Source: Aquificaceae bacterium (GTDB lineage Bacteria; Aquificota; Aquificia; Aquificales; Aquificaceae). From it: 35,593 nucleotides of DNA. The notes below the pieces were generated by a model that saw nothing but the letters and a program-made list of their open reading frames with translations, ran no database searches and had not been told where the DNA came from. The number at the start of each line of letters is the position of its first letter. The first letter of the stretch is position 1. Position numbers and translations under genes: made by a program. Location of the stretch: positions 1 to 35,593 of the forward strand of contig JBCNVD010000018.1 in NCBI GenBank assembly GCA_039630345.1. The letters are read 5' to 3'. Below are positions 12,814 through 23,353 of the stretch, one piece after another.

Positions 12814-13506
12814 GTGCGAAAAATTGCCGTTTTGACAGGTGCTGGCATCTCTCAAGAGAGCGGAATTCCCACCTTTAGAGGTAATGACGGTCTTTGGGAA
12901 AAGTATGACCTATATGACCTTGCAACGCCGGAAGGTTTTAGTAAAAACCCGCGCCTTGTTTGGGAGTGGTATATACACAGGAGAAATCTCATAAAATCAG
13001 CAAAACCAAATGAGGCGCATAAAACTCTAGTGAAGCTAGAGAATAAATTAGGAGATGGTTTTATCTTAATTACCCAGAATGTCGATAATCTCCATAGGAT
13101 TGCAGGCTCTAAAAACCTTATAGAACTCCACGGCAATATCTTTAAAGTAAAGTGTACAAATTGCAAAGCGGAATACTTTGAATTTGGTGATTTAAAGCCC
13201 ATGCCGGAGTGTAAAGAGTGCGGGGGTTTATTAAGACCAGGTGTTGTCTGGTTTGGCGAGAGTTTGCCTATTGACGCTTTAAATAGGGCAATAAGCTATA
13301 GCGAAAGCTGTGACATTTTTGTATGCATAGGAACATCTGCAGTAGTTTATCCTGCAGCGGAGCTTCCAGTTTTGGCAAAGCAAAGAGGCGCAACTGTTAT
13401 AGAGATAAATCCGGAGCGGACACCTGTATCGGATATTGCCGACATTAAAATACAAGACAAAGCTAGCTCTGGAGTGAAAAAACTACTTGAGATTTTGGGA
13501 ATTTGA
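12814..13506 (+). CDS. cobB: NAD-dependent protein deacylase (sirtuin)
   Basis: TGAGISQESGIPTFRG, TQNVDNLH, ELHGN, two CxxC, RPGVVWFGE and GTSAVVYPAA. TATAAT lies 8 nt before GTG. Confidence 0.93.
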   Translation: MRKIAVLTGAGISQESGIPTFRGNDGLWEKYDLYDLATPEGFSKNPRLVWEWYIHRRNLIKSAKPNEAHKTLVKLENKLGDGFILITQNVDNLHRIAGSKNLIELHGNIFKVKCTNCKAEYFEFGDLKPMPECKECGGLLRPGVVWFGESLPIDALNRAISYSESCDIFVCIGTSAVVYPAAELPVLAKQRGATVIEINPERTPVSDIADIKIQDKASSGVKKLLEILGI

Positions 13507-14468
13507 GAGGGGTTTTGATTCTTACAGAAGCTTCAAGGACGATAGGTCAGGGGCACTTAAGCAGATGCCTGGCTTTAAAACAGGCACTTTTGGAGCTTGG
13601 GGTTTTTAGCAAGCTCTTTGTAAGAGGGGATAATACTGTAAAGGCTTTCGCAAAAGGCGCAGCTATTTCAGAGTGGCTGTGGTGGGACAAAGCCTATCTA
13701 AAAGCCCTATCAAGGAGATATTCTGGCATAGTGATAGATTCTTATCATGCCCCTGAGAGGTTTTACTGGACTTGTGCTGAATTTTTTAAACCTGTTGTTG
13801 CCATTGATGATTATAAAAGACTAAGCGGGGATGGGGTATGGATTTTAAATCCCGGTCCATATGCCTTTGATATGGGATACTTGGGCAAAGGCCATATGCT
13901 AGGTCCATCCTTTGCTCTTTTGCGAAAGCCCTTCTGGGGAGGTTTTTTAAAAAAAATCCGCGCGCGAAGCGCGCGCTTTCTTATAACTTTTGGCGGAGAG
14001 GATATAAGGGGATTGACCCCTAGATTTGTCAGGGCTTTGAGAGAGGCTTTTGATTTAGAGCTTTATGTGGTGCTTGGGCATGCAAGCAGGGCTCAGGTTC
14101 CAGAGTCAGAAAGTGTCAAAGTCTATAGAGCTGTTAATGCCAGAACCATGAGGCGTTTGATGGAGGCATCAGACATAGCTATAAGCGCAGGAGGTCAGAC
14201 GACTTTTGAGCTTGCAAGGGTTGGGCTTGCTGCGGTTTTAATTAGCGTTGCTGACAACCAGCTACTTAATTGCAAAAGCTGGCATGAGCTTGGTGTTTTT
14301 CATTGGGCTGGAAACTGGGATCAGAGCGATATTGAGGAGAGGGTTATTGGCGCCGTTTTGGAGCTTTTTGCATACGAAAAGAGGCTCAGGGCTTACGAAT
14401 CCGGGACTAAGTATGTTGATGGGCTTGGGGCTATGAGAGTAGCCAGAAAGATTATTCAGATATCTTAG
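13503..14468 (+). CDS. PseG/SpsG-like UDP-sugar hydrolase (GT-B fold)
   Basis: IGQGHLSRCLAL, VIDSY, AIDD, ITFGGED, ISAGGQT.FELA, VADNQ and VDGLGA.RVA. Confidence 0.8.
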   Translation: MRGVLILTEASRTIGQGHLSRCLALKQALLELGVFSKLFVRGDNTVKAFAKGAAISEWLWWDKAYLKALSRRYSGIVIDSYHAPERFYWTCAEFFKPVVAIDDYKRLSGDGVWILNPGPYAFDMGYLGKGHMLGPSFALLRKPFWGGFLKKIRARSARFLITFGGEDIRGLTPRFVRALREAFDLELYVVLGHASRAQVPESESVKVYRAVNARTMRRLMEASDIAISAGGQTTFELARVGLAAVLISVADNQLLNCKSWHELGVFHWAGNWDQSDIEERVIGAVLELFAYEKRLRAYESGTKYVDGLGAMRVARKIIQIS

Positions 14469-15223
14469 GCCTGTCTTACTTTTATGTATCTTCCTGTCAG
14501 GTAGGATTTTATTCTTACAATATCGTAATCTCTTAAAAATAGCATCTTGCCTATAGCGCAGGCTTCGCAGTTGACCGTTTCAAAGAGCTGCACTATATGT
14601 TCGTAGTTTCCGGCTCCGCCTGAAGCTATCATAGGCACATCAAGTCTTTCCTTGACAGTCTTGTAAAGTTCTATGTCAAAACCTGATAGAGTGCCTTCTC
14701 TGTCTATGCTAGTTAGCATTATCTCTCCTGCACCCATTTTTAAACAGGTTTCTATGTGTTTAAAAAGGTCAACTTCTGAAGGGATTTTACCGCTAAGGAT
14801 GTAGATTTGGTATTTATCTTCTTTTTGTTTTTTAACGTCTATTGAGATGATAATTGCCTGAGAGCCAAATTCTTCTGCGAGCTCTCTTACTAAAAGAGGG
14901 TTGATAACTGCTTGTGTGTTGATTACTATTCTGTCAGCTCCGCTGAGGAAGAGTTCTCTGGCATCTTTGACACTTTTTATTCCGCCACCGGCCGATACAG
15001 GTAGCCTGCAAGCACTTGCTATTTTTTTAAGAATTTCTTTATCTATTAATCTCTCTTCTCTGTTTGCATTTATATCAAGAATAATAATTTCATCTGCTCC
15101 CTGAGCGTCATATATCTTTGCCTGAGATAGAGGGTCTCCTGTGTCTATGTAGTTTGAGAAGTTAGTCCCCTTAACGAGCCTTTTTCCAGAAAGTAAAAAC
15201 AGCGGGATGATTCTCTTTAGCAC
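14465..15223 (-). CDS. HisF-like cyclase paralog (WbuZ-type, sugar amidotransferase partner)
   Basis: LKRIIP...LVKG..F, GADEIIILDI, SIDREGTLSGFD and IASGGAG; in an operon with HisH-like and PP-loop genes. Confidence 0.85.
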   Translation of the reverse strand: MLKRIIPLFLLSGKRLVKGTNFSNYIDTGDPLSQAKIYDAQGADEIIILDINANREERLIDKEILKKIASACRLPVSAGGGIKSVKDARELFLSGADRIVINTQAVINPLLVRELAEEFGSQAIIISIDVKKQKEDKYQIYILSGKIPSEVDLFKHIETCLKMGAGEIMLTSIDREGTLSGFDIELYKTVKERLDVPMIASGGAGNYEHIVQLFETVNCEACAIGKMLFLRDYDIVRIKSYLTGRYIKVRQA

Positions 15224-15837
15224 CTGAGAGTCTCCAGGGTGTTAAACAAAACCCTTATGCCATCTGCCTGACTCTTTTCTGGATGAAATTGAAAGCCTAT
15301 GATGTTGTCTTTTTTAATAGCAGCCACAGGTTCTTCTTTGCCAAATTTAAAGCGAGCTATAACGCAAGAGTCTTCTTCTGGGATAAAGTGATAGCTGTGC
15401 ATAAAGTAAAAACTTTTGTCTCTTATTCTCTTAAATATTTGACTGTCTAAGGGTGTTATTTCGCTCCAGCCTATGTGTGGAACTTTTGCCTCCTGGCTGT
15501 TTAGCTTTTCTACTCTTGCGCTTATCCAGTTAAAACCTTCATGAGCGCCATTTTCATAACCTGTCGTTGCAAACAGTTGCATGCCAAGACATATACCTAT
15601 CAAAGGCTTTCCGATTTTAACGTGTTCATCTATTGCTTCAAAGAGCTGTTTTTGCTTAATTTTTTCAATTGAACTTGCGAAGCTGCCAACACCTGACAAA
15701 ACTATGATGTCTGATCTTCTTACTTCTTCTGGGTTTTTACACAAAGATACTTCACAGCCAAGAAATTTAAAAGCTTCTTCAACTGAAAACAGGTTACCAA
15801 CGCCGTAATCAATTAGTGATATTTTCAGCTTTAGCAT
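15217..15837 (-). CDS. HisH-like class I glutamine amidotransferase (WbuY-type)
   Basis: IDYGVGNL.SV, GICLGMQL, VPHIGW and QFHPEKS. ATG 15837 preferred as the start. Confidence 0.87.
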   Translation of the reverse strand: MLKLKISLIDYGVGNLFSVEEAFKFLGCEVSLCKNPEEVRRSDIIVLSGVGSFASSIEKIKQKQLFEAIDEHVKIGKPLIGICLGMQLFATTGYENGAHEGFNWISARVEKLNSQEAKVPHIGWSEITPLDSQIFKRIRDKSFYFMHSYHFIPEEDSCVIARFKFGKEEPVAAIKKDNIIGFQFHPEKSQADGIRVLFNTLETLRC

Positions 15838-16999
15838 CTCTAAACCACAGGTCCTGGTCCCATAGTTTTTTGCTAACTGGCAGCGTCTTTGGGTCAACCC
15901 CTTTAAAAGGATAGATGATATGATTTAGAACTATTTTGTTAAATTCCTCTTCGGATATACCTAGATATTCAAGAAATATTTCTAAAGAGGCTGGTTTAAA
16001 GGCTTCGTACTGCTCTATCAGTTTAAGACCCTCCTCCAGGGTAATTTTTCCCTCTCTTATATCTATTGCGACTCTGTGGGTCATTCGGGAAAAGCCACGC
16101 TTTAAAAACTTTATATAGTCTCTGATGCCTATAAACATACACTCAATTTTGTCAAAAGTGAGTCCAGGCAGACTCTCTATTTCATCTTCTTCCCAGCCTA
16201 GCTCTTTCTTTATGATTTCAACATTTCTCGACTGGCTCCACTCTATAAACTTTCCAAGCGGCAGACTAAGAATACCTGCCTTTTTTAGCTCTTCTTCAGG
16301 CGGGAACAAATAAGGCTGCAAATCTCTTATATCTGCGTTTATAAATCCTGCCATATCCTCTGCTCTCATACCAAGAATGATGCGCCTGTTGAACTTCCAC
16401 TCGTCAGTTTCTTCTATGTCTTCAAAACGGAAGTATCCTTCATATTCTCCCCCTCCTTCGCCCCATAAAATAAGAGGAACTTGAAACTTTAGAGCTATTT
16501 GCATCGGGTATGCAAATACCCCAGCATGACAGTGCCAGCAAAAGTCGCCTTTTCTGATTAGAGCTTCAAGCATAAGCTTTCTGACTATGTGCCAGTTTGG
16601 TGTAAAGGTTATTACATCTACCCCGAGGCGTCTAAAGGTTCTTGTGCGATTTTGCAAGGTTTTTGGTCTGTAAAAGCCGTGGTCAAATGATACCACCAAA
16701 ACCCTGAGACCTAATTCTTTAACTGCATAATACAGCGTAAAGGTCGAGTCTTTTCCGCCACTGAATGGAACTATGCAATCGTAACTCGCATTTTTCGCCT
16801 TTACATCTTCTACTATTCTCAGGAGTTCTTTTTTTCTCTCTTCCCAGTTTATTTTTTCCTGTTTTGCTTCCCAATTTCTGCATATATTGCATATACCCTC
16901 TTCGTCCAGGTAGACAGTTTCCCATGTAACTGGAAGACCACAACGCCTGCATCTTTCAAGACCCCTAAAATCCAGTATCCCTCTTATCCTGCTTTGCAT
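15809..16999 (-). CDS. N-acetyl sugar amidotransferase (PseA/WbuX family PP-loop ATPase)
   Basis: CRRC...CNIC N-terminal metal motif, YDCIVPFSGGKDS, GDFCWHCH, WGE, KFLKRGFSR and DIREG. Confidence 0.87.
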   Translation of the reverse strand: MQSRIRGILDFRGLERCRRCGLPVTWETVYLDEEGICNICRNWEAKQEKINWEERKKELLRIVEDVKAKNASYDCIVPFSGGKDSTFTLYYAVKELGLRVLVVSFDHGFYRPKTLQNRTRTFRRLGVDVITFTPNWHIVRKLMLEALIRKGDFCWHCHAGVFAYPMQIALKFQVPLILWGEGGGEYEGYFRFEDIEETDEWKFNRRIILGMRAEDMAGFINADIRDLQPYLFPPEEELKKAGILSLPLGKFIEWSQSRNVEIIKKELGWEEDEIESLPGLTFDKIECMFIGIRDYIKFLKRGFSRMTHRVAIDIREGKITLEEGLKLIEQYEAFKPASLEIFLEYLGISEEEFNKIVLNHIIYPFKGVDPKTLPVSKKLWDQDLWFRDAKAENITN

Positions 17000-17053
17000 A
17001 AGTTAATCTTGATTTACTTGGCTCTTGGTTGTCAAGAGTTTAACCTATTTTTC

Positions 17054-18259
17054 ATGTTAAGGTCTGCTATCAACCTCCCTTTTTTGATACTGGCTTATAA
17101 CTACTTTCTCTATCACATCTCAAGTGCCCTGCCGGTTGTGCTGTTTCCTATACAGCTAAAAGAGCTGCTTATTCTGAGCTCTTTTACATCTGCGCTCTAT
17201 CTTGCCTGGCTTTTTGGTGAGAGGGCAAGGACCGTTCTCTGGCTTGGATACGTTTTTCTCTTTCAGATCATAGCAATGGGGTTTACTGCAGGTAGTTTTG
17301 AGGTTGTTCTGGAGTTTACGCCTTCTTTTTTAATTACTCTCCTTTTGATATGGGTATTTGAATCCCCGACTGAAAAGAGGATAAATAAACTAAAATACGA
17401 AAAAGAGCGACTTGAACATGAGCTTGATTCAAATACTCAGCAGATAAATCAGTTAACTTCACAGATAGAAATCTTAAAAGAGCTAATTAAGAGTCTTGAA
17501 AGAGAAAAACAAAAAATAGAGCAGGATATGCTAAATTCCAAAGAGTTTGAGTTAACAAAACTCAGCCAGTTAGAAGTAGAAAAGCTTGAACTGGAGAAAA
17601 AATTAGAGCACAGCCAGAGACTTTTAGAAGATTATAGCTCAAGACTTGAGAGACTTACGAATGTAAACAGGGAGCTATTTGAGATGCTTGAGAGCTTTTC
17701 TGAGCCAAGACAAGACCCAAAGTCAGAGCTCTCCAGGTTGCGTCAGGAGCGAAAGAGACTTATTAAAGAGACTTCGAAACTATCCCAGGAGCTAGAGGAG
17801 TGTTTAGATAAACACAAATCAATTGAAAGAGAATATCTTGATATTCAGCTACAACTATCTCAGGAGCGAATAAGCAAACAAAAACTTCAACTTGAGGTTG
17901 AGAGTCTCCGTTCCCGTATAGAGTCAAAAATTGAAGTCTATTCAAGGTTTTTTGACGCTATTCTTGATAATATTGAGTTTGAACCAGGTGCAATAGAGGA
18001 GTTTTCTGCTCTCTCGCCCGAGATGAAGAGAGTTTTTTTCAAAAAACTGACTTTGCTTAACGATGCAAACCCGCAGGAGAGGTTTGAAACTTTAAGAGAG
18101 CACAGAGGAATTTTCAAACTAAAGCCAAAAGGCGGTAGAATATACTTTACCCACGGTAAGGCAAGGCGCTGGAAGGTGATAGGTATACTCTGGGGAGAAG
18201 ATCCAAAGAGTAAAAGTAGATATCTAAGAGATATGCTTTCTCGCTATGACTTTGGCTAA
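17054..18259 (+). CDS. Membrane protein: ~4 TM helices + long coiled coil + C-terminal RelE/ParE-like domain
   Basis: Hydrophobic first ~100 aa, ~190 aa E/K/L/Q heptad-rich region, then IEFEPGAIEEFSAL...FFKKL..L...FETL....GIFKLKPKGGRIYF.......VIGI. ATG 17054 preferred because the track start overlaps the neighbouring gene. Confidence 0.65.
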   Translation: MLRSAINLPFLILAYNYFLYHISSALPVVLFPIQLKELLILSSFTSALYLAWLFGERARTVLWLGYVFLFQIIAMGFTAGSFEVVLEFTPSFLITLLLIWVFESPTEKRINKLKYEKERLEHELDSNTQQINQLTSQIEILKELIKSLEREKQKIEQDMLNSKEFELTKLSQLEVEKLELEKKLEHSQRLLEDYSSRLERLTNVNRELFEMLESFSEPRQDPKSELSRLRQERKRLIKETSKLSQELEECLDKHKSIEREYLDIQLQLSQERISKQKLQLEVESLRSRIESKIEVYSRFFDAILDNIEFEPGAIEEFSALSPEMKRVFFKKLTLLNDANPQERFETLREHRGIFKLKPKGGRIYFTHGKARRWKVIGILWGEDPKSKSRYLRDMLSRYDFG

Positions 18260-18271
18260 AATTCAGATTAA

Positions 18272-18856
18272 ATGAATCAGGAAAAGGTGGTTGTATTTAT
18301 AGATGGCTCAAATCTCTTCCATGCAATAAGGCAAATGAATATCAAAATTGACTATCAAAAACTCGTTGATTTTCTCAAGGAAGACAGAAGATTGATAAGG
18401 GCTTATTTCTATAGTGCCATACCTCAGGAGAAGGATTTAAAGCGCGAAAGCCCTGAGTGGGAAAGCCTTCAGCGTCAAAAGAGGTTCCTGGATGAGCTTT
18501 CGCTCCTTGGCATAAAGGTAAAAATCGCAAGACTAAGGAGACTAAACTCCGGCGAATTTATCGAAAAGGAAGTTGATGTGATGCTTGCTACTGATATGCT
18601 TAGCCTCGCCTATAACGGGGTTTACGATACTGCAATTCTGGTAAGTGGTGACTCGGATTTTTCGTATACAGTCGAAGACATTCAGCGCATAGGCAAGAGG
18701 GTAGAGAACGCAAGTTTCAGGAAAATAAGCTCTTTTCAACTAAGAAAAGTCTGCGATAGGTTTGTCTTGCTTGATGAATATTTAGATAGATTCGTGGTGG
18801 AGGAAAGTCAAAGCCAGAGTATCTGGAACAAAATCTCAAAGCTGTGGCGAAAATAG
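18272..18856 (+). CDS. NYN domain (LabA/DUF88, PIN-like) protein
   Basis: VFIDGSNL, EKEVDVMLATDML, ILVSGDSDF, GKRV and LRKVCDRF. Confidence 0.9.
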   Translation: MNQEKVVVFIDGSNLFHAIRQMNIKIDYQKLVDFLKEDRRLIRAYFYSAIPQEKDLKRESPEWESLQRQKRFLDELSLLGIKVKIARLRRLNSGEFIEKEVDVMLATDMLSLAYNGVYDTAILVSGDSDFSYTVEDIQRIGKRVENASFRKISSFQLRKVCDRFVLLDEYLDRFVVEESQSQSIWNKISKLWRK

Positions 18857-19794
18857 ACAAAGTCTTTAGCGTAAAAACGCAGGTAAGTGATTGTGTAAAA
18901 GGCTTTGAATGTATTCAAAATTTAAACACTGACTGCATTGTAGCGGTAGGAAACTTTGATGGACTTCATATTGGACACAAAAAACTTCTAAATTCAGCGC
19001 TTAAAGAAGCCAGATTGTCAGGCTTGCCCCTCGTGGTACTTAGTTTTTTGCCACATCCTGCAAGATACTTAAAAAAAGAGCATTGCTATGTAGTGCCACA
19101 GAGACAAAAACTCGAGCTATTAACTCAAAGCGGGGCACTTGTTTGTTTGCTTAGATTTAACCAAAAGCTTAAAGATACATCGCCTGAAGATTTTATAAAC
19201 TCTGTCCTTAAAAACGCCCTGAATGCAAAAACGCTGGTGGTTGGTAAAAACTGGCGCTTTGGCAAAGATGCTCTTGGTAATCCGGATTTGGTAAAACGCC
19301 TTGGCATAAGGGTTCTTGAGGTAGATTTACTTAGGATAAATCAAACTCAGGTTAGCAGCAGTCTCTTAAGAACCTATCTCTCACAGGGGGATTTAGATAG
19401 CGCAAGAGCCTTGCTTGGCAGACCTTATGAGGTTTGGGGAAAGGTCGTAAGAGGTCAGGGTCTTGGCTCAAAAATTGGCTTTCCAACTGCCAACATAAGC
19501 GGAACTCACAGCCTTTGCTTAAAAGAAGGGGTTTATGTCGTTGTTTCTGAGGATGGGCTTTTGGGTCTTGCAAACTTTGGAAAAAGACCCACTGTAGGGG
19601 GACTTTCTAAAAGACTTGAGGTGCACTTTCCTGATTTTTCTGGCTCTTTTGAGGGCAAGGTTTTAAAACTCAGATTTGAGAAGTTTTTAAGACCTCAGAT
19701 AAGGTTCTCAAGTCTTGAGGAACTGAGGGAGCAAATCTCCAAGGATTTGCTGATTTTGAGAGATTTTGCGCCTAAAAGGCGCGTTTATGAATAA
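18844..19794 (+). CDS. ribF: Riboflavin kinase/FAD synthetase
   Basis: GNFDGLHIGH, SSSLLR, GFPTAN, GKRPT and LEVH. Exact start is uncertain. Confidence 0.93.
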   Translation: MAKIDKVFSVKTQVSDCVKGFECIQNLNTDCIVAVGNFDGLHIGHKKLLNSALKEARLSGLPLVVLSFLPHPARYLKKEHCYVVPQRQKLELLTQSGALVCLLRFNQKLKDTSPEDFINSVLKNALNAKTLVVGKNWRFGKDALGNPDLVKRLGIRVLEVDLLRINQTQVSSSLLRTYLSQGDLDSARALLGRPYEVWGKVVRGQGLGSKIGFPTANISGTHSLCLKEGVYVVVSEDGLLGLANFGKRPTVGGLSKRLEVHFPDFSGSFEGKVLKLRFEKFLRPQIRFSSLEELREQISKDLLILRDFAPKRRVYE

Positions 19795-20045
19795 ATACAG
19801 ATAATCTTCCCATCTTCTGTTAGAGCAAAAGAGCGAGAGAGCTGGTCTTTTATGCCTTTTTTGTTTTCGATAAAGTCTATAAGCCCTTTTGGTTCACCGT
19901 GGGTTTTTAAAATGTGAGTTAGCTCCTGGCCGTTATCAAACTTTATGATAACCTCAAGGCAATAAAATTTTGAGGCCTCTCCTTCATTGCACCTCTTTAT
20001 CTGCCCAACGACGATTATTTCCTGGCTCTTGGCAACTATCCTCAC
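19785..20045 (-). CDS. Hypothetical protein (86 aa)
   Basis: In-frame GTG at 20045, 9 nt after a minus-strand TATAAT. The longer track ORF (to 20237) is antisense to argH. Confidence 0.55.
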   Translation of the reverse strand: MRIVAKSQEIIVVGQIKRCNEGEASKFYCLEVIIKFDNGQELTHILKTHGEPKGLIDFIENKKGIKDQLSRSFALTEDGKIICIYS

Positions 20046-20067
20046 TGAAGCGTTATTATAAACTTCT

Positions 20068-21444
20068 ATGCAAAAACCTTGGGCGGGAAGATTCAGCGAA
20101 AGCACCTTGCCTTTTGTCGAGGAGTTTACGCAGTCCATAGACTTTGATTGGCGACTTGCCAGGTTTGATATTCTCCAGAGCATGGCGCATGTAAAAACAC
20201 TCGAAAAGGCAGGGGTTTTGACCCCTGAAGAGTCCATTAAGCTCTATCAAGGGCTCGAGGGACTTCTTAAGGCACTTGAGGGGGGGAATTTATTGCCTGA
20301 CAAATCTCTTGAGGATGTTCATATGAATATCGAAGCCGCGCTTACGCGCGAAATTGGTCAGCTTGGCAAAAAGCTCCACACAGGGCGCTCAAGAAACGAC
20401 CAGGTCGTTTGTGATGTAAGACTCTTTCTAAAAGAGGAGCTACAAAACATCATTTCAGAGCTAAAATCCCTTAGAAAAACCCTTGTTTTACTGGCCAGAG
20501 AGCATATAAATACCATCGCTCCATCTTACACTCATCTGCAGCACGCCCAGCCTATAAGACTCTCTCATTACTTTCTCTCCTTTCGCGAGGCTTTTTTATC
20601 TGACACTATAAGGTTTATAAACGCCTACAGGAGCTGCGATGCTCTGGTTCTTGGCTCAGGCGCAGTAGCCGGGGTTGACTTTGAGCTAGATAGGTTCTAT
20701 ACCGCATCATTGCTTGGTTTTAACCGCGTTAGCAGAAACTCAATTCAGGCAACATCAGACAGGGACTTTTTGCTTGATTCTCTTTATGCCTGCGCCGTGT
20801 GTGGTATGCACCTATCCCGTATAGCGGAAGATATGATTATCTGGTCAAGTCAGGAGTTTGGCGTGCTTGAACTCCCTGATAGACTCTGCACCGGGAGCTC
20901 AATAATGCCACAGAAGAAAAACCCTGATGTTCTGGAACTCATAAGGGGCAAGACCTCAAGGCTTTATGCAAATTTGTTTAATGTTTTTGTTCTTCTAAAG
21001 GCTTTGCCAAGTGCATATAATAGAGACCTTCAGGAGGACAAAGAGCCTCTGTTTGATAGCCTTAAGACCACTCTTGATTGTATAAAGGCCCTTAACCTTA
21101 GCCTCGAGGGGGCAAAATTCAACAAAGCCCGCCTTTATGAACTCAGTCAGGATTTGAGTGTTATGACAGACCTTGCAAATTATCTTGTCAGGAAAGGTGT
21201 TAGCTTTAGAGCTGCACATGAAATTGTTGGTAAAATCTGTGCAAAGGTTTTATCCAGCGGTATTTCGCTAAAAGACATCTCTATTGATATGCTAAAGAGT
21301 TTTGACCAAAGATTTGAAGAGGATGTTTTGAGATTTTTAAAGCCTGAAAATTGTGCCGATGCCAGAATAACTTTTGGCTCAACTGGCATTTCAGCTCTTG
21401 AAAAAGCCCTTGAAAATGCCATGCGCGAGGAGGGTATATCGTGA
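20068..21444 (+). CDS. argH: Argininosuccinate lyase
   Basis: WAGRF, HTGRSRNDQV, YTHLQHAQP, GSSIMPQKKNPD and YNRDLQEDK. Confidence 0.96.
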   Translation: MQKPWAGRFSESTLPFVEEFTQSIDFDWRLARFDILQSMAHVKTLEKAGVLTPEESIKLYQGLEGLLKALEGGNLLPDKSLEDVHMNIEAALTREIGQLGKKLHTGRSRNDQVVCDVRLFLKEELQNIISELKSLRKTLVLLAREHINTIAPSYTHLQHAQPIRLSHYFLSFREAFLSDTIRFINAYRSCDALVLGSGAVAGVDFELDRFYTASLLGFNRVSRNSIQATSDRDFLLDSLYACAVCGMHLSRIAEDMIIWSSQEFGVLELPDRLCTGSSIMPQKKNPDVLELIRGKTSRLYANLFNVFVLLKALPSAYNRDLQEDKEPLFDSLKTTLDCIKALNLSLEGAKFNKARLYELSQDLSVMTDLANYLVRKGVSFRAAHEIVGKICAKVLSSGISLKDISIDMLKSFDQRFEEDVLRFLKPENCADARITFGSTGISALEKALENAMREEGIS

Positions 21445-21670: not shown

Positions 21671-23353
21671 ATGCATTCAGTAGGTGTGGTTCTTGGTACA
21701 AAGCCTTCAAACCCGCTTGAGTTCTGGATAGGCATTGAATCAGATGATATTTTAGAGCTTGACCAGATAGTTTTCGTGGTATCAAAAGCCAAAGATAAAG
21801 AGTATTTCTTCTATGCCGTTGTTGCTGAGGTTTCAAAATATTTCGAAGGTGTCGAGCTTGTGCTTGATGCCCAGCTTGCAACAAATGGAGTAATACCAGT
21901 TAATATTGCCCACATAGCAAAAGCTAACGTTATAAGAGTTGAGCCAGAGGCATTTTTTGCGCCATCTCCGGGCGATAAAGTTTATATAGCCACCGATGAT
22001 CACTTAAAGAAGGCAATTTATGTAGACCAGATGAGGGCAAAGTTTCCCGCAGGCGTTGATAGATTCGGAAATGTCATATACGCAAACTTAAACTTCGTCA
22101 ACGGAAAAGAAGGGGCGCACATTAGCATCTCCGGAATGTCGGGAGTGGCGACCAAAACCTCTTACGCCCTTTTCCTGCTATATTCGATTCTCTCAACCGT
22201 TGAAGACCGCTCTGGAGTAGGGACTCTTATTTTCAATGTAAAGGGTAAAGACCTTTTGTGGCTTGATAAAAAAAACAAAAACATAAGAGAAGAAGACCGC
22301 AAGCTATATAGGTTAATGGGTCTAGAACCTAAACCATTTAAAGATGTCGAGTTTTATTGCCCGCCTCATCCTTCTTCCAGAGGCTTGCCGGATTCAAACA
22401 GATTTGATAAGAATGTAAAGACCTTTTGCTGGAGTATGCAAGACTTTGCCCGGGAGGGATTGATAAGATTTATGTTCACGGAGGGTCTCGAAGGTTCTTC
22501 CAACCTTCACTATGTTATAGACAGAGTTGCAAACAGACTCTACGAGCTTGCGGAAAGTAGTTCTAAGGATGACTTAGGTAATAGACTTATAGGCAAAGAC
22601 GGCAGGGATATAGAAACTCTTGAAGATTTGCTGCAGAGACTGAAAAATGCAATATCAGAAAAAGAGGAGGCAAAAAGCAGAGAAACCACGGACGACTATC
22701 GCTACTGGTTTGGTGATGCGTCTTTACAGACTGTCTATGCCTTTATGAGAAGGTTTACTAGAGCCTGCCACTACATTTCGCATTTTGTAGGAGTTAATGA
22801 AACTCAAAGTCCTGAAGTAAGCGGTGGCAGGATAGAGGTAGTTGATATAAGCTCGCTCCATAGTCTTGCCAAGATGTTTGTCGTTGGCGCAATTTTGAGA
22901 AGGCTTTTCAGGGAAAAAGAGCTCAGGACAAGTCCAGAACCGAGAATTTTCGTAGTGCTTGACGAGCTTAATAAATACGCTCCAAAAGAGGGTTGGAGCC
23001 CTCTTAAGGATATCCTTCTGGATATAGCAGAGCGCGGAAGGAGCCTTGGGATTATTTTAATTGGCGCACAACAAACCGCAAGCGAGGTAGAGAAGCGCAT
23101 AGTTGCCAACTGTGCTATAAAGGTAGTTGGCAGGATGGACCCTTCGGAACTTGCAAGCAAAGAGTATGACTTTTTAACCGGAGGCTTTAGAAGGCGCGCT
23201 CTTCTTCTTAAAAAAGGGAGCATGGTGCTATATCAGCCGGATGTTCCCAGTCCCTTGCTTGTGAGATTTCCAATGCCCGCTTGGGCAACAAGACAGGAAG
23301 AGGTGGAGGATGAGATTACTGTTCCAGATAGTTTTAATTACTTTGGTTCTTAG
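21671..23353 (+). CDS. HerA/FtsK-superfamily ATPase with N-terminal HAS barrel
   Basis: HISISGMSGVATKTS (variant Walker A), IFNVKG.D, VVLDELNKYAP, ERGRSLG and GAQQ. Confidence 0.85.
   Translation: MHSVGVVLGTKPSNPLEFWIGIESDDILELDQIVFVVSKAKDKEYFFYAVVAEVSKYFEGVELVLDAQLATNGVIPVNIAHIAKANVIRVEPEAFFAPSPGDKVYIATDDHLKKAIYVDQMRAKFPAGVDRFGNVIYANLNFVNGKEGAHISISGMSGVATKTSYALFLLYSILSTVEDRSGVGTLIFNVKGKDLLWLDKKNKNIREEDRKLYRLMGLEPKPFKDVEFYCPPHPSSRGLPDSNRFDKNVKTFCWSMQDFAREGLIRFMFTEGLEGSSNLHYVIDRVANRLYELAESSSKDDLGNRLIGKDGRDIETLEDLLQRLKNAISEKEEAKSRETTDDYRYWFGDASLQTVYAFMRRFTRACHYISHFVGVNETQSPEVSGGRIEVVDISSLHSLAKMFVVGAILRRLFREKELRTSPEPRIFVVLDELNKYAPKEGWSPLKDILLDIAERGRSLGIILIGAQQTASEVEKRIVANCAIKVVGRMDPSELASKEYDFLTGGFRRRALLLKKGSMVLYQPDVPSPLLVRFPMPAWATRQEEVEDEITVPDSFNYFGS

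Follow-up and report, generated by a model that had tools for sequence, protein, structure and literature searches.

A predicted membrane-tethered RelE-fold protein and its operon partners in the Aquificaceae

Results

The contig JBCNVD010000018.1 of a hot-spring bacterium of the Aquificaceae (assembly GCA_039630345.1), all 35,593 nucleotides (nt) of which were analysed and are called the window here, carries an open reading frame (ORF), ORF A, whose product is predicted to consist of a membrane anchor, a long helical stalk and a C-terminal domain with the fold of the toxin RelE. ORF A (17054–18259 on the + strand, stop codon included; 401 amino acids (aa) from an ATG start) opens a co-oriented block in the ORF list that continues, after a 12-nt spacer, with the gene for an NYN-domain RNase (18272–18856, + strand, stop codon included; 194 aa, Pfam PF01936). 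The block ends with ribF (18844–19794, + strand; 316 aa), the gene for the FAD synthetase/riboflavin kinase, which overlaps the end of the NYN gene by 13 nt and matches Pfam FAD_syn at E 3.2e-38 and Flavokinase at E 2.1e-31. An in-frame TTG at 16994 would lengthen ORF A by 20 aa; the alignments with homologues, which at full length have ~390–405 aa, begin at the ATG at 17054.

The C-terminal domain (residues 307–398; 17972–18247, + strand) was assigned with AlphaFold, Foldseek, VIA-align and a profile search of the PDB. Its AlphaFold model, with a predicted local distance difference test score (pLDDT) of 87.5 and a predicted template modelling score (pTM) of 0.80, has the DSSP assignment E18–20, H22–29, H33–48, E56–58/E61–67, E72–78, E84–91 and H95–106, which matches the RelE topology as given in the part of Gerdes 2025 available to us (PMC11980606). 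All 32 Foldseek matches listed against the PDB are RelE, HigB, ParE or YoeB toxins, other toxin-antitoxin chains, or Cami1; the best, at E 7e-4, is E. coli RelE (2kc8), and template modelling scores normalised to the target reach 0.76. VIA-align places M. tuberculosis RelE1 (9g12_B) at the top, at Z 9.7 with a root mean square deviation of 2.5 Å over 81 residues, gives another match at Z 9.5 and, for 70S-bound E. coli RelE, aligns 91/94 residues at Z 9.1, and all 50 entries shown belong to the BECR-fold superfamily, are toxins of toxin-antitoxin pairs, or are Cami1. Since Z values of 7–8 are common background by the tool's own statement and those of the ORF A domain are modestly higher, the structural score by itself is moderate.

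When a profile built from 21 orthologous domains was compared with PDB sequences, the top four matches were all E. coli RelE variants (E 0.009–0.015). The alignment spans the first to the third strand, places the FKLKPxGGRIY motif of ORF A on YKIKLrsSGYRLV of RelE and pairs K355, K357 and R362 with RelE K52, K54 and R61, which, along with R81 and Y87, we take to be catalytic or RNA-binding residues of that toxin. Among 20 full-length homologues, K355, G360, G361, R362, Y364, E382 and K387 are invariant, and the three aligned basic residues K355, K357 and R362 are invariant or at least 90% conserved. A conserved GEDxKxKxRY sits in the C-terminal helix that superposes on the last helix of RelE, and the domain motifs are retained in a second family of the phylum (f3, below). 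The last 112 aa alone match only Pfam Gp49 (HigB-like), at E 0.11; a single-sequence phmmer search of the PDB with the same 112 aa gave chance matches only (E of at least 0.78) and was set aside, and an ESM Atlas feature search with the RelE domain returned scores of 0.76–0.79, under the tool's own noise level. Because sequence profile, topology and structure agree, we consider the predicted RelE (BECR) fold of this domain a firm assignment, and its conserved basic positions speak for the RelE/HigB type.

A full-length AlphaFold2 model of ORF A, built on the alignment of the 20 full-length homologues, reaches a pLDDT of 84.5 with a pTM of 0.35, and the mutual arrangement of the parts is therefore undefined. 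Four transmembrane helices are predicted (residues 2–25, 35–53, 57–79 and 83–101; 17057–17356, + strand), in agreement with Kyte-Doolittle peaks at 22–44, 59–86 (three overlapping windows) and 81–103, and the anchor ends in a conserved membrane-exit motif, FESPxE. As this motif and F10, L11, P32, G55, P90 and P105 are invariant or nearly so in the homologue alignment, the anchor would seem to be more than a greasy tag. Lysine and arginine are concentrated in the loop at 54–57 and right after helix 4, so that by the positive-inside rule both termini, the stalk and the RelE domain would be cytoplasmic (N-in/C-in); the outer, periplasmic loops predicted by the model have only ~9 and ~3 residues, which argues that ORF A has no external sensor domain. 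An ESM Atlas search with residues 1–110 gave only generic helical-bundle neighbours (template modelling scores of 0.48–0.61), and the corresponding feature search gave no usable match.

The stalk begins with a helix of 111 residues (105–215; 17366–17698, + strand), a probable coiled coil to judge from the AlphaFold model, hydropathy and weak SMC/Rad50 coil matches over residues 107–292. It breaks at a hinge (residues 216–222, with P218 and P222; 17699–17719, + strand), where pLDDT is below 50 over 214–222, and in the model continues as a second helix of 81 residues (223–303; 17720–17962, + strand). The two helices total 192 residues, in which glycine is absent and proline occurs only at 105, 218 and 222, and the best-conserved stalk residues border the hinge and are invariant or nearly so, with N205, L208 and F209 on its N-terminal side and E225, L229, R230 and E232 on its C-terminal side. 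Pfam and NCBIfam scans of full-length ORF A returned coiled-coil noise only. A helix rises by ~0.15 nm per residue, and with this value the stalk, probably a dimeric hinged coiled coil, would be roughly 16–28 nm long if extended. The initial annotation of the window had drawn much of this architecture from the letters alone, namely ~4 transmembrane helices, a ~190-aa coiled coil and, by eye, a RelE/ParE-like C-terminus of ~95 aa, and all three parts reappear in the models and searches, the coil with a break at 214–222.

ORF A belongs to a larger unit, as a comparison of 20 loci shows, each of them the surroundings of an ORF A homologue from a relative. In 15 of the 20 loci ORF A is followed on the same strand by a gene of the baeRF family and then by NYN, with 1–65 nt between ORF A and baeRF. 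The intervening product (~406 aa) matches baeRF_family12 (PF18856, E 7e-23, 82 bits), baeRF_family10 (E 3e-11) and eRF1_3, and there is no GGQ motif in the two baeRF sequences read. The baeRF stop codon overlaps the NYN start codon as ATGA in two junctions read base by base (L016 and L011), and an overlap of 4 nt follows from ORF coordinates in 13/15 loci. The ancestral operon is ORF A–baeRF–NYN, and ten of the 15 loci that have all three genes continue with ribF after NYN (L001–L005, L007, L008, L016, L018 and L019). As baeRF intervenes in 15 of the 20 loci, the direct adjacency of ORF A and NYN is a derived state; the pairing that the initial annotation had singled out survives as membership of one operon-like unit in most relatives, though not as an original adjacency.

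The window's genome has lost baeRF, leaving ORF A 12 nt upstream of NYN. Searches of its assembly (96% complete) with the protein at E ≤ 10 and with PF18856 at E ≤ 1, the latter giving matches in control genomes, did not find the gene, and on these grounds the idea of a copy elsewhere in that assembly was rejected. The 12-nt spacer (18260–18271, + strand), which is the scar of the deletion, takes the position occupied in relatives by the ~1.2-kilobase baeRF gene. A same-genus genome shares this junction, and a directly adjacent ORF A–NYN pair without baeRF is found also in one genome of genus g12 and in two sister genomes of genus g6. On a midpoint-rooted FastTree phylogeny of concatenated ORF A and NYN from the 20 loci, the loci without baeRF fall in separate places, which would imply three deletions if regain is excluded; since the window's locus and that of the g12 genome branch off one after the other, two is the minimum. 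Across the deletions, the position of the NYN start relative to the ORF A stop ranges from 4 nt inside it to 12 nt past it. There is no Shine-Dalgarno sequence for NYN in the 12-nt spacer, and because NYN has none of its own and its start stays near the ORF A stop, the arrangement suggests that NYN is still translationally coupled.

Homologues of ORF A are present in 53 of the 61 family genomes, in 39 of the 45 of high quality and in 11 of the 12 genera, the named sources being Aquificaceae, Hydrogenobacter and Thermocrinis; in genus g11 none was found (0/8). Of these 53 genomes, 51 have a single matching place each; the remaining two show one gene in two pieces whose query ranges complement each other, the pieces being on the same contig in G043 and on separate contigs in G008. 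In a wider survey of 151 genomes of the phylum, comprising families f1 (that of the window) to f5, the ORF A domain occurs in 64/72 genomes of f1 and 6/8 of f3 and in none of f2 (0/44), f4 (0/25) or f5 (0/1). The figures for baeRF are 56/72 in f1, 6/8 in f3, 1/44 in f2, 0/25 in f4 and 0/1 in f5, and those for NYN (E ≤ 1e-30) are 66/72, 8/8, 30/44, 0/25 and 0/1 in the same order. Genus g11 has NYN in 7/7 genomes of this survey, ORF A in 0/7 and baeRF in 0/7, and, in a separate search, HPF in 8/8. ORF A and baeRF thus appear to have been gained and lost largely together, save for a few lineages that dropped baeRF alone.

Protein identities were computed between all pairs of the 15 three-gene loci, and those of ORF A, baeRF and NYN rise and fall together (r of 0.78–0.83, 105 pairs), at mean identities of 44%, 63% and 76% respectively, a pattern that fits vertical co-inheritance of the three genes. 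The single baeRF match in f2 (G147, genus g17, C63:540–1751), 60% identical to the f1 query, is in an 82%-complete metagenome-assembled genome (MAG) and could be a gene transfer or contamination.

The NYN protein scores 109.6 bits with PF01936 (E 2.5e-31; the cut-off is 24.2), and D11, D102, D108, D127 and D129, like the DGSN and GDSD motifs, are invariant in 20 orthologues, in keeping with the intact acidic motifs originally read in the gene 12 nt downstream of ORF A. Identity across the family is 56–90%. Alignment and hydrophobic moment mark a cationic amphipathic C-terminal tail (SIWNKISKLWRK in the window; 18818–18853, + strand), with an SFWEKIKxLWKR-like consensus, hydrophobic moments of 0.59–0.98 and net charges of +1 to +4 in the 20 orthologues. 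The moment of the window's tail, 0.83, is equalled or exceeded by 0.4% of shuffles, and in 13/20 orthologues fewer than 5% of shuffles reach that of the tail, which is retained in genus g11, where ORF A is absent. That the tail is a membrane-binding helix or a docking peptide is speculation. A second, distant NYN paralogue (~30–39% identity; G000:C40:7975–8463, − strand) occurs in most family genomes; many of its matches contain in-frame stops in a read-through alignment of the 194-aa query, and as the open frames have 163–255 aa these stops may merely mark a shorter gene. A same-genus, 69%-complete MAG carries an NYN orthologue (L030, G005:C151, 2662–3246, − strand; 90% identical) that is split by an internal TAA and is either a pseudogene or an assembly error.

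The RelE domain is rare. When 1.84 billion representative proteins were searched exhaustively with the domain profile, no more than 26 matched at E ≤ 0.001, most of which share the ~400-aa architecture of ORF A; the exceptions are a 113-aa standalone toxin-like protein and a 431-aa protein (P0142) with a transmembrane–periplasmic–transmembrane–coil–RelE-like layout. The best 120 listed relatives of the latter have 338–471 aa, mostly ~425 aa, and the named ones among them are Myxococcota or Deltaproteobacteria MAGs; this Myxococcota-type family has E and G at the two lysine positions of ORF A. An ESM Atlas structure search found Thermodesulfobacteriota clusters with the same C-terminal fold, response-regulator proteins among them, at template modelling scores of 0.75–0.81, which we treat as leads only. 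The layouts in these two phyla suggest that RelE-fold proteins joined to a sensor or an anchor make up a broader class, as yet without a name.

The window's genome (1.16 Mb) encodes RNase Y (621 bits, over the cut-off), an RNase E/G protein and SmpB, and the presence of RNase Y ruled out ORF A as a substitute for it. HPF/RaiA (PF02482), present in 57/61 family genomes, was not found in the window's genome, and in the same-genus genome (69% complete) neither HPF/RaiA nor baeRF was found; the genus may have lost the known hibernation factors during genome reduction. At E ≤ 0.01 none of the PADLOC 2.0 models matches the RelE domain or baeRF; ORF A as a whole matches only the coils of SMC-like proteins, and NYN matches HEC-09 (1.4e-17) and a generic NYN model.

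Upstream of ORF A and divergent from it, a profile scan places a PP-loop-type enzyme gene (15809–16999, − strand), beyond which lie hisH-like and hisF-like genes and a glycosyltransferase gene, and argH lies downstream of the block. The genes flanking ORF A are housekeeping genes, and no mobile-element or defence genes were seen among its surroundings in the window. There is also no antitoxin gene next to ORF A, as had been stated at the outset, the neighbours being the divergent PP-loop gene on one side and NYN and ribF on the other. A TAAAAT that had been credited to NYN as its own does exist at 18257–18262, where it overlaps the ORF A stop codon 9 nt ahead of the NYN ATG; it was not called as a promoter in a promoter and terminator scan of 16800–20200, which gave three promoter-like sites against 5.0 expected and thus no excess over shuffles. 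Elsewhere in the window, a glycosyltransferase-28-like gene on the + strand and hisF-like, hisH-like and PP-loop amidotransferase-like genes on the − strand (13503–16999) form a cluster that presumably resembles one for acetamidino-sugar-type sugar modification more than one for histidine biosynthesis. A 560-aa ORF at 21671–23353 (+ strand) has, by eye, Walker-type ATPase-looking motifs of HerA/DUF87-like appearance, and matches no Pfam family at E ≤ 0.001.

Discussion

As far as the literature consulted shows, ORF A is a known fold in an undescribed architecture, mode of inheritance and operon. With E. coli RelE and the type II RelE/HigB (Gp49) toxins it shares the fold and the order of secondary structure, and it has basic residues that align with RelE K52, K54 and R61, whereas its domain makes up the last ~95 aa of a membrane protein of 401 aa without an antitoxin gene and falls below every Pfam cut-off, and the gene is found in 11 of 12 sampled genera and diverges congruently with its neighbours. 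The features of type II toxin-antitoxin modules are missing accordingly, for ORF A has no adjacent small antitoxin and is not patchy, mobile or multicopy. ToxM, in the part of Gerdes 2025 available (PMC11980606), has an N-terminal RelE/ParE-fold (BECR) toxin domain, a central transmembrane segment and a periplasmic C-terminal domain, and is preceded by a ribbon-helix-helix/helix-turn-helix antitoxin, ToxR. Both proteins join a RelE/ParE-fold domain, predicted to be cytoplasmic, to a transmembrane segment, but in ORF A the order is reversed, the helices number four, a ~190-residue stalk is interposed, and there is neither a periplasmic domain nor an antitoxin or upstream regulator. As far as that source goes, its analysis excluded multidomain proteins for which no antitoxin could be identified, and the two Aquificaceae entries shown from its supplements, where 'Aquificaceae' occurs 5 times and the names Hydrogenobacter, Thermocrinis and Aquifex were not found in the text covered, are monodomain toxins of 92–98 aa.

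Another related protein is Cami1 (CARF-RelE, a type III CRISPR effector; 8phb/8phj), which like ORF A carries a C-terminal RelE domain behind an N-terminal regulatory module and has no antitoxin, and which matches the ORF A domain model at Z 7.6–8.0 in VIA-align. Its RelE domain (residues ~261–367 of 384) has been solved on the 70S ribosome and is thus a precedent for an N-terminally fused, ribosome-binding RelE; Cami1 is, however, soluble, regulated by cyclic oligoadenylate and linked to CRISPR, whereas ORF A is membrane-anchored through a helical stalk and has no CRISPR link. For NYN there is the precedent of Rae1/YacP of B. subtilis, an NYN-superfamily nuclease that, in the available part of the source, acts in the ribosomal A site (PMC6613710) and so exemplifies a translation-coupled NYN RNase; Rae1 belongs to the NYN_YacP family, and the NYN of the window matches PF01936.

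The gene between ORF A and NYN in relatives encodes a full-length member of the baeRF-1/Balon group (PF18856, eRF1_3). Balon, as described in the part of the source available, is an aeRF1-like bacterial hibernation factor that binds the ribosomal A site with EF-Tu (PMC10901736). A supplement of Burroughs and Aravind 2019 lists Aquificae proteins of 402–407 aa, labelled 'peptide chain release factor 1', as 'baeRF1 family 15', with a codon-recognition domain followed by baeRF1 and Pelota domains (PMC6514570); from length and taxon we infer that the operon baeRF is one of these. The neighbours reported for the baeRF family in the available parts of these papers are HPF/RaiA, RtcB and stress genes (PMC6514570, PMC10901736), and neither main text, as far as available, mentions an NYN or RelE-fold neighbour, NYN being absent from the 2019 supplement too. 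Nor is a coiled-coil-tethered RelE protein or an NYN neighbour mentioned in the available text, figures aside, of PMC11980606 or of the baeRF and Balon papers, and in the literature on RelE fusions, baeRF, Balon and NYN we found no description of the ORF A architecture or of its operon.

The reading to which we tentatively give preference, and which comes closest to being probable, is that ORF A is a membrane-tethered RelE-fold protein that would reach into the A site of membrane-proximal ribosomes and probably cleave their messenger RNA (mRNA), as a housekeeping module for the surveillance or shutdown of translation. The stalk would limit the predicted nuclease to ribosomes docked on the membrane or close by, and since its estimated length is on the scale of the ribosome, such spatial confinement could stand in for an antitoxin as the means of control. 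On stalled or idle ribosomes the RelE domain would cut the mRNA in the A site, in most relatives the emptied A site would then be taken by the baeRF factor for rescue or hibernation, and the mRNA pieces would be degraded by NYN. RelE and aeRF1-like factors occupy the same ribosomal A site, so that the RelE domain and baeRF would act in sequence, the one cutting and the other rescuing or parking. In the reduced genome of the window, which is without HPF as well, rescue would fall to transfer-messenger RNA and SmpB.

Several points count against this reading. The membrane–ribosome geometry and regulation by tethering are pure inference. ParE-type members, which are not RNases, share the fold and score nearly as high (Z 8.2–8.7 in VIA-align), and as they reach Z 8.7 the fold alone cannot separate an mRNase from a protein with another target. 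The last 112 aa stay below the Pfam gathering score, the best match being Gp49 (PF05973) with 13 bits against 23.9, and among the 21 orthologues Gp49 is touched weakly by four and ParE_toxin by three, with a best E of 0.013–0.018. The equivalents of RelE R81 and Y87 (K385, K387, R389 and Y390) are placed by pattern only, and the position of the first lysine is E in the related standalone toxin and in the Myxococcota family, which indicates that this lysine is not universally required. ORF A lies apart from baeRF–NYN in 5/20 loci, where baeRF and NYN stay together, so that the tightest pair is baeRF–NYN and not ORF A–NYN; NYN is moreover far more widespread than ORF A, as its presence in 30/44 genomes of f2 attests. 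ORF A persists in the absence of baeRF in the window's genome and in two further lineages, hence it does not depend on that factor. In f3 the three genes are on different contigs, hence their linkage is not obligatory, and ORF A there adjoins unrelated envelope genes, by eye an STT3-like-looking membrane protein gene and an M23-peptidase-looking gene. Finally, related genomes are not independent samples, and the co-occurrence amounts to a handful of events rather than to statistics.

The proposed order of cutting and rescue resembles, by analogy, the endonuclease-plus-Pelota logic of no-go decay, and a narrower version of the proposal, which we regard as possible though unlikely, makes ORF A the endonuclease of a no-go decay at the membrane. 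It would cut the mRNA of ribosomes jammed during co-translational insertion, the aeRF1/Pelota-like factor would clear or park these ribosomes, and NYN would remove the fragments; ORF A would then be a domesticated toxin fold in core translation quality control.

Doubtful, and slightly more so than the preceding version, is that the domain is catalytically silent and binds the A site of the 30S subunit only as a tether that anchors idle ribosomes to the membrane for hibernation or storage, in cooperation with baeRF, NYN being an unrelated passenger. A stalk of such length fits a tether, the conserved basic residues might do no more than bind RNA, and an aeRF1/Balon-like factor has the same phyletic pattern as ORF A, Balon being a hibernation factor in the available part of PMC10901736. 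Yet RelE and aeRF1-like factors, competing for one A site, cannot share a single ribosome, the positions aligned to the catalytic K, K and R of RelE are invariant or nearly so, and the window's genus keeps ORF A intact without baeRF or HPF.

The initial annotation also weighed an abortive-infection system, in which ORF A would be an effector of suicide or defence without an antitoxin, its anchor sensing envelope damage or phage and its RelE domain, with NYN, stopping translation. RelE/ParE domains do occur in defence toxins, including, in the available part of PMC11980606, the membrane-bound ToxM, and in the sensor-fused Cami1; NYN matches the PADLOC HEC-09 and NYN models, the Myxococcota family has a sensor-like transmembrane–periplasmic–transmembrane–coil–RelE layout, and the same C-terminal fold is found in the response-regulator proteins of the ESM Atlas. 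This reading is nonetheless weakened, and we hold it improbable, because ORF A is widespread (53/61 family genomes, 11/12 genera), in single copy and congruent in divergence with its neighbours, its flanks are housekeeping genes with no mobile or defence genes seen nearby, and its RelE domain, like baeRF, matches no PADLOC model; the short periplasmic loops, too, leave no external sensor domain. A role in a toxin-antitoxin or abortive-infection system is thus less likely than that of a vertically inherited, ribosome-directed mRNA endonuclease.

A general, ribosome-independent degradosome of ORF A and NYN at the membrane, after the manner of RNase Y, is a shade more improbable still. The likeness to RNase Y had been remarked on from the start and holds for the architecture, both proteins having a membrane anchor, a coiled coil and a nuclease module (in ORF A, a predicted RelE-fold domain), and the conserved cationic amphipathic tail of NYN could bind membranes. 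RNase Y, however, has one transmembrane helix and KH and HD domains, of which ORF A has no match, and the reading as general decay loses ground because the genome already has RNase Y and RNase E/G. The third ancestral partner, moreover, is a ribosomal A-site factor, and the RelE-fold RNases characterised so far require the ribosome, according to the part of PMC11980606 available.

A ParE-like or other non-RNase function, with the fold binding gyrase, a membrane complex or another non-ribosomal target, has ParE toxins among the structural matches (Z 8.2–8.7) and the weak contact of 3/21 orthologues with Pfam ParE_toxin in its favour, but is very unlikely, given that the best sequence and structure matches are RelE proper, that the operon partners are translation- and RNA-related and that the catalytic lysine and arginine positions of RelE are conserved, whereas such residues are missing from ParE toxins according to the available part of PMC11980606.

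Conclusions

The RelE-fold nucleases known so far are mostly either small toxins kept in check by an antitoxin or effectors of defence, and in ORF A the fold is predicted in a conserved membrane protein that has no antitoxin and is inherited in the manner of a housekeeping gene. Should the domain prove active, control through spatial confinement would be a novel means of taming a toxin that depends on the ribosome, and the operon would be a bacterial counterpart, at the membrane, of the endonuclease-plus-Pelota surveillance of eukaryotes and archaea. The poorly understood baeRF/Balon family gains a specific pair of nuclease partners, predicted here, and the natural deletions of baeRF in the window's genome and in two other lineages are ready-made genetic variants.

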